Shown: one piece after another, positions 1 through 4,145 of the stretch
Position numbering within the stretch: the stretch's first letter is position 1
How the letters are laid out: every line of letters begins with the position of its first letter
Virus record (IMG/VR): IMGVR_UViG_2526164596_000006
DNA: 4,469 nucleotides
Reading direction: 5' to 3' (one strand)
Source: a virus
Lineage: Duplodnaviria > Heunggongvirae > Uroviricota > Caudoviricetes
Notes under the pieces: generated by a model
Told to the model about the DNA's origin: nothing
Databases searched by the model: none
The model's input: the letters and a program-made list of their open reading frames with translations, nothing else
Translations under genes and position numbers: made by a program

Positions 1-1571
1 ACGGTCTTCGCTGGTATGGCATCCGCACGGTGGAGCCTCACCATGACGGCACCGTGCACTGGCATATGATGGTCTTTGCTCATCCGGAAGAAATCGACAG
101 CATCGTGGCCATCACCCGCGATATTGCCATTCAGGAAGACCGCCACGAGCTGGGCAATGATATTACTCCGCGCTTTAAGGCGGAGTATGTCGACGGCTCA
201 AAAGGCACACCAACCAGCTATATCGCGACCTACATCGGAAAAAACCTGGACAGCCGGGCCGTGGATGGCATCGACCCGAAAACAGGCAAACCACGCGTTG
301 ACCACGAAACCGGAAAATCAATGGCCGAGAGCGTGGAACGCGCCATCGGCTGGGCGCGCCTTCACCGGGTCCGCCAGTTCCAGTTCTTTGGCATTCCCTC
401 CCGTCAGGTGTGGCGTGAACTCCGCCGCCTTGCCAGCCAGATGGCACGCAGCCCGGAAGGCCCGCAACGGCTGAAGGATGACGCAATGGATGCGGTTCTT
501 GCTGCCGCTGATGCCGGGTGTTTTGCCACCTACATTGAAAAACAGGGTGGCGTACTTGTTCCGCGCAAGGACTACCTGATTCGCACCGCCTACGACCTCG
601 CAGATGAGCTGAACGATTACGGCGAACAGAGCGTACAGATTTACGGGATCTGGTCACCACTCATCGGGGAATCCTCCCGTGTGTGCACGCATCCGGATAA
701 CTGGAAGCTGGTAAGACGTAAACCGGAAGCGGAAGACAGCGCCCGCGAAAATGGTTTTGACCTTCAGGGCGGCCCTGCCGCCCCTTGGACTCGTGGCAAT
801 AACTGTCCCCGTGTACAGGAAACGAACAACAACGGGGCAGAACAGCCGGAAGAACGGCCAGCACCGTGGCCGCAGCTCCCTGATGGCGTTGAAGTGAACG
901 AATGGATGCGCTCACTGAAACGGCACGAACGCCGGGCGCTGATGCGTTCGCTTCATGATAAACAGGCAAAAAACAGCAGTGATGAAATGCAGAGCTGGAC
1001 ACAGAGCCGCAAACAGCAGCGGCCTTTGCCTGATAACCACGAATTACTCGCTAAAGAATGGCGGGAGTCTGCCGAATCTCTCGGCCTGCATATCGGTGAA
1101 CAGCAGATGCAGCACCTGTTACGGGGCGGCAGCCTGTACGTTGACGGCAGCATCATTGCACCGCAGGGATTTGAAATTGTACGCAAACCGGATACCCGAC
1201 CGGACAGCCGGATCACGCAGCTCTGGCAGCGCCTGAGCCGTAACCACGGCGTAAGCAGCACGGAGATCCGCCATAACCCGGTCGCCGGCTATCTGGCACA
1301 GCTGGGGGCATCAGACCACGAAGCCGCCGCACGCCTGGCATCCACACTTCAGCAGGACCAGAACACCATGAAAACCCCCGTTACCGTGCTTTCTGACATG
1401 CTGCGCGCCATCCGTGACGCAGAGCACGCACAGAGAATCAGTGAAACCACTGAACGCGCCCGCCGCAAAGCAGACCTGCTGCGGGGTAGCCTGACCAGTG
1501 GAAACAAAAAACAGACAGAAACGGGATTCACAAAACCCGTAAATGAGCAAAAAACGCGCCGCGATATATGA
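1..1571 (+). CDS. A: Replication initiation endonuclease, P2 gpA family (HUH rolling-circle nickase); 5' end lies outside the window, about 522 C-terminal codons present
   Basis: The frame beginning at nt 3 is open to the window edge; the ORF track's start at 30 is a GTG, so the true start is upstream. Stop is TGA at 1569-1571. The translation has HWH (nt 57-65) followed about 50 residues later by SYIATYIGK, with Tyr codons at 219-221 and 231-233 (Y-x3-Y), the catalytic arrangement of P2/186 A-type nickases. A long hydrophilic C-terminal region follows. Confidence 0.8.
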   Translation, partial: GLRWYGIRTVEPHHDGTVHWHMMVFAHPEEIDSIVAITRDIAIQEDRHELGNDITPRFKAEYVDGSKGTPTSYIATYIGKNLDSRAVDGIDPKTGKPRVDHETGKSMAESVERAIGWARLHRVRQFQFFGIPSRQVWRELRRLASQMARSPEGPQRLKDDAMDAVLAAADAGCFATYIEKQGGVLVPRKDYLIRTAYDLADELNDYGEQSVQIYGIWSPLIGESSRVCTHPDNWKLVRRKPEAEDSARENGFDLQGGPAAPWTRGNNCPRVQETNNNGAEQPEERPAPWPQLPDGVEVNEWMRSLKRHERRALMRSLHDKQAKNSSDEMQSWTQSRKQQRPLPDNHELLAKEWRESAESLGLHIGEQQMQHLLRGGSLYVDGSIIAPQGFEIVRKPDTRPDSRITQLWQRLSRNHGVSSTEIRHNPVAGYLAQLGASDHEAAARLASTLQQDQNTMKTPVTVLSDMLRAIRDAEHAQRISETTERARRKADLLRGSLTSGNKKQTETGFTKPVNEQKTRRDI

Positions 1572-1620
1572 AGCGCGCATAAAACAGGCAAAAACGGGAT
1601 TTAAAAACCCCGTAAACGAT
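1507..1620. repeat. Two ~36-bp imperfect direct repeats, each with an internal inverted repeat (ACGGG-N9/10-CCCGT), with A-tracts spaced about every 10-12 bp; candidate parC-like centromere/operator for the downstream parMR
   Basis: Copy 1 at 1507-1543 (aaaacagacagaaacgggattcacaaaacccgtaaa) and copy 2 at 1581-1616 (aaaacaggcaaaaacgggatttaaaaaccccgtaaa). Copy 1 overlaps the last codons of gene A; copy 2 is intergenic, about 30 bp upstream of the parM start. Position matches where parC sits in type II partition loci. Confidence 0.4.
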
Positions 1621-1647
1621 TAATTAATCAACATAAGGAAAATCGAC

Positions 1648-2952: not shown

Positions 2953-2986
2953 ACTTTAATCCGGGAACATAAACAAGGGGGACACA

Positions 2987-3319
2987 ATGCAACACATTGA
3001 CAGAGAAAAAGCGCAGCGACTGATTGAGCGGATGGAAGCGCTGGCGAAAGAAGAAAATGTCAACATCCAAAAAATAGCTGAATGTGGCCAGATAGTTCTT
3101 CGTCGTGAAAAAGACCTCAAACAACTGATGTCTGGCGAAACCAGCAAAACATGGACTTCAGGCGAGGAGACGATTTATTGCAGCTTCTGCAATAAATCTC
3201 AGTACGAAGTCACAAAGGTGATTGCCGGACCGTCTGTTTGCATCTGCAATGAGTGCGTGGATTTGTGCAATGAAATTATCAGGAGAGAAGTGACAGACAA
3301 AAAGGGAAAAAACGCATGA
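2987..3319 (+). CDS. Small protein with a C-terminal ClpX-type C4 zinc-binding domain (110 aa); N-terminal ~60 aa of unknown function
   Basis: ATG at 2987 with a strong SD (AAGGGGG at 2975-2981). Residues [40 protein letters not shown] align almost residue-for-residue with E. coli ClpX N-domain [40 protein letters not shown] (from memory), conserving all four Zn-ligand Cys (CSFC ... CNEC). No AAA+ module follows; the protein ends 15 residues later. Confidence 0.8.
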
Positions 3320-3654
3320 ACAGAAAACAAAAACAAGAGTTGAAATACTTTTTACGTAAAGAAATTGCCAGGCTTGAAGATGCAGAATCACAATCATCAG
3401 AAATTCCGTTCGGAATGGATATCAACGACGCCCGTATGCTCCAGGCATACCGCATAGCTCAGGCTGCACTACAGGCAAAACCGTCAGATGGACTGGTTAG
3501 AGCAGTACGATTCTATGAACTGGTAAAGCGTGAGAATCCGCCAGCCGAAACCGGAGCATGGAAAGACGCTGTTGACTGGGTACTCAAAGAGGCTTGTCAG
3601 GTTGTAAACACTGGCATCAAAGGAGACCTAGCCCAGCCTGCATCAAAGCTATAG
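3316..3654 (+). CDS. Hypothetical protein (112 aa), translationally coupled to the ClpX-zinc-finger gene
   Basis: Its ATG (3316-3318) overlaps the upstream TGA (3317-3319) as ATGA; SD-like AGGGAA at 3304-3309. Predicted to be largely helical and charged ([24 protein letters not shown]...). I recognise no domain. Stop is TAG at 3652-3654, followed directly by a terminator. Confidence 0.6.
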
Positions 3655-3664
3655 AAATGAGCCA

Positions 3665-3692
3665 AAACGCCCTCTTCCAGGGCGTTTATTTC
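3665..3692 (+). terminator. Rho-independent terminator closing the parM-parR-zf-hyp cassette
   Basis: aaacgccct (3665-3673), loop cttcc, agggcgttt (3679-3687), then a T-rich tail (atttc). It starts 10 nt after the gene-4 stop. On the minus strand the hairpin is followed by TTTTGG, so it may act in both directions. Confidence 0.7.
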
Positions 3693-3694
3693 AA

Positions 3695-3721
3695 TGCACA
3701 ATAGTGCACAAATTTGCACAA
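3695..3721. repeat. Three direct TGCACAA heptamers at exact 10-bp phasing (a fourth copy at 3787-3793)
   Basis: TGCACAA at 3695-3701, 3705-3711 and 3715-3721, followed by a T7 tract. Helical phasing suggests a binding site for a multimeric DNA-binding protein, for example in packaging/cos recognition or regulation. Confidence 0.5.
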
Positions 3722-3785
3722 TTTTTTTGAACGACTTTTTGCCCTTCCGGCCCGCGTGGCGGCTGGATCCGTCAGGGATCCGTGC

Positions 3786-3818
3786 GTGCACAAAAAAACG
3801 CGTTTTTTCTGCGCGCAG
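3786..3818. repeat. Cluster of perfect palindromes in the cos-proximal intergenic region
   Basis: gtgcac (3786-3791), a 16-bp perfect palindrome aaaaaacgcgtttttt (3793-3808), and an abutting 10-bp perfect palindrome ctgcgcgcag (3809-3818). Preceded by ggatccgtcagggatcc (3765-3781) and a GC-rich stretch containing gcgtggcgg (3754-3762), which partly resembles the 5' part of the 186/P2 cohesive-end sequence as I recall it. Confidence 0.5.
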
Positions 3819-4092
3819 GTGACGGGGGAACAGCCCGCGTTTCAGGGGGTAAATAGCATTCCCTGAACGATGTCGCAGAGATACAACAGAATGGCTGTAT
3901 TTCTCACGCTGAGCGTGAAAAAGACGTGAGGGCTTTTGATTTGATGGGGTGAAAGGTAAGGCCGTCAAAATCGCACTGAGACGGCGAGAACATGCAGTCA
4001 ACGCGGTGGGATTGCGTAAGAGTCTGACTGTCGATGATGGCAATCAGCAGGAAAGCGTCGTGAAATTATCTGATTGATACAGGAGCTGGAGA

Positions 4093-4121
4093 GCCGGGGC
4101 ATAAATTTTTTATGCCCCGGC
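4093..4121 (-). terminator. GC-rich hairpin about 25 nt downstream of the portal-like gene stop; candidate terminator or packaging-region structure
   Basis: gccggggcat (4093-4102), A/T loop aaatttttt, atgccccggc (4112-4121); the stem can extend to 13 bp. The flanking sequence is not strongly U-rich on either strand, so terminator function is uncertain. Confidence 0.4.
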
Positions 4122-4145
4122 GAAGCAGCAGACAAGCGAAGCGCG

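Follow-up and report, generated by a model that had tools for sequence, protein, structure and literature searches.

The parMR locus of a P88-like prophage

We describe a pair of repeats between the replication gene (gene A) and parM in a P2-family prophage, and we propose that they are probably the parC site of a DNA partition cassette. The DNA that we analyzed, hereafter the window, is a stretch of 4,469 nt from a virus of the Caudoviricetes (IMG/VR record IMGVR_UViG_2526164596_000006). Its open reading frames (ORFs) and their Pfam domains identify it as part of a P88-like, P2-family prophage, with gene A followed by parM and then parR, and over its whole length it shares 97% identity with Escherichia phage P88 (Peduoviridae, Xuanwuvirus). 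The 3' part of gene A lies at 30-1571 on the + strand (Pfam Phage_GPA). On the same strand, parM (1648-2607) encodes an actin-like segregation ATPase, with matches to StbA_N (PF06406, 2.7e-82), to the ParM C-terminal domain (PF21523, 1e-68), and to the structure of ParM from plasmid R1 (1MWK, 1.2e-92; likewise 4A62, ~1e-92). Directly downstream, parR (2612-2923, + strand) encodes the centromere-binding adaptor (PF10784, 4.4e-24). From the sequence, we read AAGGAA at 1635-1640 (+ strand) as the ribosome-binding site of parM; ATAAGGA is also present in an R1-type locus (L012).

Between gene A and parM there is a direct repeat of 42 nt, at 1505-1546 and at 1578-1619. The two copies match at 35 of 42 positions (83%) and are 73 nt apart, start to start. 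In 1,000 dinucleotide-preserving shuffles of 1400-1720, no repeat reached 35/42 (mean 23.5, maximum 28). An earlier note on this DNA, made without database searches, had described two direct repeats of ~36 bp; there are indeed two copies, and they are slightly longer than that. Each copy contains one ACGGG-N10-CCCGT palindrome, as the note had also said: ACGGGATTCACAAAACCCGT at 1521-1540 and ACGGGATTTAAAAACCCCGT at 1594-1613. Within the window, GGG-N10-CCC occurs solely at 1523 and 1596, with 1.15 occurrences expected; for CGGG-N10-CCCG the expectation is 0.08. We refer to the two copies as the predicted parC units 1 and 2. Unit 1 is within the frame of gene A and unit 2 is intergenic, and with the gene A stop ending at 1571 and parM starting at 1648, the repeats stand directly before parM. 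Three features fall in the polymorphic spacer between them (31 bp, 1547-1577): the gene A stop codon (1569-1571), a weak promoter candidate, and a dyad that is rich in GC. A conserved box, ATTAATCAA (1623-1631, + strand), lies between palindrome 2 and the ribosome-binding site.

The top strand of this region is A-rich (47% A and 11% T, vs. 49% and 15% in the parC of R1). A-tracts were said to be phased near the helical repeat, and they are: the periodicity of AA dinucleotides peaks at 10.5 bp, which was reached in 0 of 2,000 mononucleotide shuffles, although the 73-bp spacing of the repeats (7 x 10.4) itself contributes part of this signal. The 123-nt stretch from 1501 has the strongest AA periodicity in the window. 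For R1 parC, about 1 in 2,000 shuffles reached its AA periodicity at ~10.5 bp.

We also note that the central spacer has a GC-rich pair (ACGCGCC ... GCGCGCA; 1555-1578), both copies of which read CGTGCAA in a Hafnia metagenome-assembled genome (L136). This parallel change may point to another paired element in the DNA that separates the palindromes.

The repeats belong to the parMR cassette

In two relatives from IMG/VR (L093 and L101), similarity to the window starts at 1506/1507, and gene A ends 460-560 bp further upstream, with unrelated ORFs in between. In a Hafnia locus (L006), parM is preceded by an ORF of 167 aa that is not gene A. With 1470-1700 as the query, matches to the DNA from 1470 on are confined to phages that carry parM. 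Because the mosaic breakpoints are at 1506/1507, we assign both repeats to the parMR cassette and not to gene A. At the other end, similarity in several relatives stops between 2923 and 2978, beside a GC-rich hairpin (2929-2952). Judging from these borders, the mobile unit is about 1506-2952 and comprises both repeats, parM, and parR. A P88-like temperate phage thus carries the cassette as cargo, with gene A on one side and the portal gene on the other, and we found parMR between these two genes in P2-like prophages of other genera. The segment 1400-2700 is present in 1350 of the 5426 complete genomes of E. coli (about a quarter), and it is chromosomal in 1505 of 1507 places in them. E. coli O55:H7 CB9615 is one of the strains with the cassette.

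Because copy 1 is within gene A, the earlier note had supposed that the same DNA must satisfy both protein-coding and protein-binding constraints. The relatives contradict this. In L101, an unrelated ORF of 155 aa ends with the same tail as gene A and shares only the last ~22-29 residues, which are encoded by the repeats. In L093, a different ORF stops before the module, and only a doubtful frame of 73 codons enters it. The run of A at the left edge of the cassette (1505-1510) is A6 in the window and A5 or A7 in relatives. The A5 and A7 variants, along with another indel, move the tail of gene A into other frames, which end in NKKTDRNGTHESRK or NKNRQKRDSQIP and a stop codon, or extend into unit 2. 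Among 64 distinct relatives, the variable sites are spread 8/6/9 over codon positions 1/2/3 in the tail of gene A, vs. 7/4/50 in parM. Since the variable sites in the tail have no codon-position bias and its frames shift naturally, the tail evolves like non-coding DNA. The overlap with gene A is incidental: any upstream ORF runs into the cassette until the TGA at 1569-1571, and the last ~21 codons of gene A in the window (from ~1506) are cassette-encoded. Judging from the spread of its variable sites, parM is clearly under strong purifying selection.

The paired palindromes are conserved in diverged loci

Searching with 1470-1700 by blastn gave close relatives only; diverged loci were reached by searching with the ParM and ParR proteins and then looking up the contigs. 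Among 89 close relatives, the majority form of palindrome 1 is GGGATTCACAAATCCC, and that of palindrome 2 is GGGATTTAAAAATCCC or GGGATTTCAGAATCCC. Polymorphism at intermediate frequency is seen in the central 4-6 nt, and the GGGAT/ATCC arms hardly vary. Invariant arms around a variable center would be the usual pattern for a palindrome that is bound by a dimer.

The same arrangement is found in three more distant loci. The palindromes are GGGATTCATGAATCCC and GGGATTTGAAAATCCC in the Hafnia metagenome-assembled genome L136, whose ParR is 74% identical; GGGATTGAGGAAACCC and GGGTTCATTAAATCCC in Hafnia L006 (ParM 62% identical), where both lie within the 167-aa ORF; and GGGACAACAAAAACCC and GGGACAACACTAACCC in Plesiomonas L008 (ParM 63% identical). 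Relative to the ATG of parM, they are at -125/-52 in most E. coli loci, -124/-51 in L136, -128/-55 in L006, and -131/-59 in L008, and the spacing of the two palindromes is 72-73 bp in every GGG-N10-CCC lineage that we examined. By blastn, L006 and L008 match the window only from 1619-1623 on, and the flanks of the palindromes do not align. Conserved arms, free centers, and a fixed helical phasing are what we would expect of a protein-bound pair of operators. The earlier note had made the conservation of the repeats upstream of orthologous parM genes a test of its proposal. What is kept is the pair of palindromes (16-20 bp each, 72-73 bp apart), and not the full repeats of 36-42 bp.

We found no further copy of the GGG-N10-CCC motif in 18.8 kb of P88. 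Scanning IMG/VR with the ParM proteins from Hafnia and Plesiomonas gave no more loci of that clade and added one locus at 53% identity. The box ATTAATCAA is also kept in E. coli, L006, L008, and L136, despite neighbors that fail to align. A -10 region is one possible role, though the box is weak as a -10 element. On inspection, it does not fit the consensus for integration host factor (IHF), so we rejected it as an IHF site.

The repeats vary together with the N-terminus of ParR

ParR is 34% identical to the ParR of R1 over residues 6-61 (the N-terminal 56 aa). Its C-terminal N-I-x-x-x-F-P motif (NIRALFPE in the window) is kept across alleles. The ParR alleles from Escherichia and Hafnia diverge to 52% identity overall, with residues 1-50 (MTTPTRRISFYLKPAAVK...AFLAGLAL) and NIRALFPE nearly invariant. 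The variation is confined to a hypervariable linker (aa ~65-95), and the neighboring ParM proteins are 98-99% identical, which suggests recombination or diversifying selection that is limited to the linker. Pfam and the similarity to R1 are our grounds for expecting that ParR has a ribbon-helix-helix fold. Searching the PDB with the sequence of ParR gave no match.

Loci whose ParR has the N-terminus TRR(I/V)SFYL have the GGG-N10-CCC pair. Loci whose ParR has NRKISFYL, which are prophages of Serratia and Enterobacter, are without it and have inverted GAAATAGAAAAAT/ATTTTTCTATTTC repeats instead. The inverted ATAGAAAAAT repeats of these prophages resemble the direct iteron of IncL/M and IncF plasmids (TATTTTTCT), and the ParR of those plasmids starts with NRKCSFY. 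Among other plasmids, RRKITFYL is paired with the iteron TAGTTCTCAAA, and R1, with KRRTIAFKL, has 11-mers of the AAAACCC type. This co-variation is qualitative, and it suggests that ParR is the protein that reads the repeats.

In three P2-like prophages of Serratia and Enterobacter (L009, L010, and L017), there is a long inverted repeat of the form GGGAAC.A.ATAGAAAAAT / ATTTTTCT.TTTC, with arms 26-28 nt apart. These form a second clade of prophage parMR with a different putative centromere.

Comparison with known systems

The parC of plasmid R1 belongs to a type II ParMRC system (Dam and Gerdes 1994, as summarized in PMC2241845). R1 parC spans 159 bp, with five direct 11-bp iterons on either side of a 39-bp core that contains the promoter. 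Each iteron binds about one ParR dimer, the DNA is strongly curved, and the site is both centromere and operator, with autoregulation by ParR (PMC2241845). The element in the window is like R1 parC in being directly upstream of parM-parR, in having two blocks that flank a short core, in its A-rich top strand with A-tracts phased at ~10.5 bp, and in the homology of ParM and ParR. It differs in its dimensions (42 + 31 + 42 bp, or ~115 bp) and in having two palindromes, or four half-sites, instead of ten direct iterons. Moreover, no clear promoter is seen in it, an upstream ORF runs into it and ends there, and it is in an integrating phage. The R1-type layout itself is visible in L012 and, with other iterons, in many plasmids. 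The earlier note rightly called the architecture a variant of the R1 type, with two long units that have inverted-repeat cores rather than ten short iterons.

Two other systems are from elements that normally reside in a chromosome. In SXT/R391 elements, srpC has only four repeats of ~13 bp, some direct and some inverted, and the adaptor binds them pairwise; both binding and plasmid stabilization were demonstrated experimentally, and srpMRC acts on the excised, replicating circular form (PMC4489591). As in the window, a type II-like partition system is on a normally integrated element, with the centromere upstream of the actin-like gene. However, SrpR has no recognizable similarity to ParR, whereas the protein in the window belongs to PF10784, and SXT/R391 are integrative and conjugative elements, not phages. 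In the integrated Corynebacterium prophage CGP3, AlpAC is an actin-like protein plus an adaptor, and the adaptor binds repeats (alpS) upstream of its own operon (PMC4446434, PMC5539076). Expression of AlpAC starts early after induction, and normal levels of circular phage DNA depend on it (PMC4446434). AlpAC is a precedent for what ParMRC may do in a P2-like phage. The differences are that alpS has 24 short TTAAnnG repeats, that AlpAC is no more than a distant relative of ParM and ParR, and that the gene order is different.

Related plasmid loci are the parMR loci of IncL/M, IncF, IncI/K, and other plasmids and of the plasmid-prophage D6 (L001-L005 and L018-L045), with ParM 47-52% identical, the same parM-parR order, and repeats upstream. 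These loci have 4-8 direct iterons of 10-11 bp (for example TAGTTCTCAAA or TATTTTTCT) that flank a good sigma-70 promoter; in the prophage clade, two palindromes take the place of the iterons, and there is no strong promoter. The repressors Arc and Mnt, which have the ribbon-helix-helix fold, bind palindromic operators with half-sites about one helical turn apart and one dimer on each. That is the geometry that we propose for each palindrome in the window, but the Arc and Mnt operators are single, serve only for repression, and have no link to a filament motor.

Proposed function of the repeats

We propose that 1505-1619 is the cis-acting parC of a type II, R1-like ParMRC cassette, and we put the probability of this at roughly 0.7. 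Among the reasons are that parM and parR follow the repeats directly and that homologous plasmid loci have repeats in the same place, upstream of parM and on both sides of a promoter. On comparative grounds, then, the parC-like centromere and operator of the earlier note stands: the element travels with parM rather than with gene A, and it is conserved in diverged orthologous loci. We infer ParR binding, its stoichiometry, the position of the promoter, and the biological role.

The site would work as follows. The predicted parC has two 42-bp units, 73 bp or seven turns apart, each centered on CGGGATT-N4-AATCCCG and with phased A-tracts. ParR (of the ParR/StbB family, which is ribbon-helix-helix in R1 and pB171) would bind the two half-sites of each palindrome, which are one helical turn apart, probably with one dimer on each. 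Both loaded palindromes would be on the same face of the DNA, and together with the phased A-tracts this could give a compact partition complex. The C-terminal tail of ParR (NIRALFPE) would couple the complex to the ends of ParM filaments. Binding of ParR may also repress a weak parMR promoter, located between the units or over palindrome 2.

As for the biological role, the cassette most plausibly stabilizes or positions the circular phage genome, excised or replicating, as proposed by analogy with srpMRC and AlpAC. A more specific idea, which we offer tentatively and consider rather doubtful, is that a minimal palindromic centromere (four half-sites in two operators seven turns apart) lets a rolling-circle phage of the P2 family use ParM on its circular genome, so that the system would be for positioning phage DNA and not for plasmid maintenance. 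ParM might be used in this way after infection and before integration, after excision, or during lytic replication.

Several observations weigh against the proposal that the repeats are parC. The allele in the window is a rare one, with AAACCC and AACCCC in place of AATCCC, which weakens both palindromes; the outermost C of palindrome 2 is T in about a quarter of the close relatives; and a few of these lack a perfect GGG. Four half-sites are far below the ten iterons of R1. With a weight matrix for the R1 iteron, the scores at 1502, 1528, and 1599-1601 did not exceed those of unrelated A-rich sites, 3325 among them. As the matrix is not specific, homology of the sites to the R1 iterons cannot be claimed. 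The phasing of A-tracts is not significant in L006 and L008. The AlphaFold model of the ParR monomer, whose confidence is too low for use (a predicted local distance difference test score, or pLDDT, of 56), has helices at 20-29 and 32-52 after a basic N-terminal segment and no strand. In our scan of 1400-1650 for promoters, there was no consensus sigma-70 promoter and nothing at 9/12, so autoregulation by ParR is a conjecture. Instead, transcription of parMR may depend entirely on the early promoter and read-through of gene A, as there is no terminator on the + strand between gene A and parM. Also, partition has no obvious use for an integrated prophage, and we found no data on binding, segregation, or expression for this system in our full-text searches of the literature.

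By hand, we picked two weak promoter candidates, TGAGCA-15-TATATG in the spacer and TTTAAA-17-ATTAAT over palindrome 2, and they are not consistently conserved. The counterpart of the spacer candidate in L136 is TGAACA-16-TATAAG, and the central -10 is lost in a Salmonella locus (L015).

Alternative explanations

The palindromes might serve as operators alone, by binding ParR or another regulator from the phage or host for the control of parMR or of read-through from gene A, with no segregation complex and with some other role, or no role, for ParMR in this integrating phage. Having just two palindromes is typical of operators, the chromosomal location of the prophage (1505 of 1507 places) makes partition unneeded, and two reports describe chromosomal ParMR systems with roles other than segregation (PMC12270681; bioRxiv 10.1101/2025.06.27.661541). 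However, the purifying selection on ParM (7/4/50) and the conservation of the ParM-binding tail of ParR would not be expected, the exact spacing of seven turns is held in three lineages, and there are integrating elements whose circular form is known to be served by a ParMRC-like system (PMC4489591, PMC4446434). We therefore consider this explanation unlikely, though it is the strongest of the alternatives. If the repeats were instead a functionless relic of plasmid ancestry, or of recombination at a module junction, this would account for a region that is more polymorphic than parM, for an allele in the window that degrades both palindromes, and for relatives without a perfect motif. It would not account for a motif and a 72-73-bp spacing that outlast the divergence that has erased similarity in the flanks, or for arms that are conserved while the centers vary, and we think it improbable.

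An element that acts as RNA is more improbable again. The hairpins might form a terminator or attenuator between gene A and parM, an mRNA stabilizer, or an antisense terminator: a 5-bp stem is possible in each copy, the RNA fold of 1501-1647 has z = -2.6, and a terminator scan picked copy 2 on the minus strand, where an 8-bp stem has UUUUUG after it. But no gene on the minus strand here needs a terminator. The stems on the coding strand are weak (-6.6 kcal/mol), with 10-nt loops and no U-tract, and we rejected an intrinsic terminator on the + strand because these 5-bp stems are followed by AAAU or AAAC. L006 and L008 keep only 3-4 of the pairs, so what is preserved is GGG-N10-CCC and the fixed spacing, not the strength of pairing. 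Searching Rfam at a permissive threshold identified no family, only a single chance match (E 0.93).

Least credible of all, and largely refuted, is that the repeats belong to the replication module, as an origin or an accessory site that the A protein would bind in the 3' end of gene A. It is true that the origin of P2 is within gene A (it is annotated as a nick at P2 position 29892) and that copy 1 is within the frame of gene A. But the nick-site sequence of P2 aligns to ~775-815 of the window, with the nick at ~787, which is ~720 bp upstream of the repeats and outside parC, so we rejected the repeats as a P2-family origin. The nick-site homologue is in a P2-type origin island of ~70 bp (765-838, + strand) that is the sole part of 700-1660 whose DNA is conserved in about 70 other P2-like phages. 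The island has 84-92% DNA identity in otherwise diverged phages (Fels-2, SEN8, and phages of Klebsiella and Yersinia), and it aligns to the nick site of the P2 origin as GCGGC..GCCGC.CCT.GGA.TC.TG.CAATAACTGT. By contrast, past 1470 the DNA has matches only in phages with parM, and the repeats can stand behind unrelated ORFs with gene A 460-560 bp away.

Other features of the window and its relatives

Downstream of the cassette, the slot between parR and a conserved block (2953-3694) holds variable cargo. In the window, it includes an ORF of 110 aa (2987-3319) that has a ClpX-type C4 zinc finger (PF06689, 2.9e-16) and little else, and an ORF of 112 aa with no assigned function (3316-3654). In relatives, the slot has unrelated genes, including DUF4760, DUF3800, SSB, KAP NTPase, and HicAB. 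A PADLOC scan of ParM, ParR, and these two downstream ORFs gave no match to a defense system. A ~140-bp piece of the 112-aa ORF (3485-3626) is 88-93% identical to hypothetical genes in unrelated phages such as vB_EcoP_PAS61, mEp460, and Wanchaivirus, which indicates a small module that is swapped between phage families.

The block at 3695-4145 is conserved among relatives, and the portal gene follows on the minus strand, from 4146. The 19-mer of the P2 cos site (GGCGAGGCGGGGAAAGCAC) is absent from the window within 3 mismatches. Since GGTGACGGGGGAACAGCCC at 3826-3847 agrees with the 19-mer at only 13 of 19 positions, we could not assign a cos site.

We also note that a complete P88-like genome of 34,461 bp (NZ_CP148288.1, locus L138), which includes the integrase, parMR, and all of the structural genes, is on record as a circular "plasmid" from an isolate of E. 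coli. This circular record may be the excised or replicating form, caught by the assembly, or a truly episomal state.

Implications

Databases have annotations for the parMR genes of P88-like prophages, and our searches of the literature gave no description of a cis-site and no functional study. Annotators should be aware that the C-terminal ~21 residues of the "replication endonuclease" in P88-like phages are read-through into a regulatory element. As far as can be judged from sequence, the kind of site is known and its architecture here is new, and the prophage cassette that carries it is very common. It would imply that a ParR of the R1 family can work with a palindromic site that is far simpler than the textbook parC with its ten iterons. 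It also means that a very common and apparently active actin-like segregation system is carried by integrating prophages that should not need one, and a defined centromere gives a handle for testing what the cassette does.

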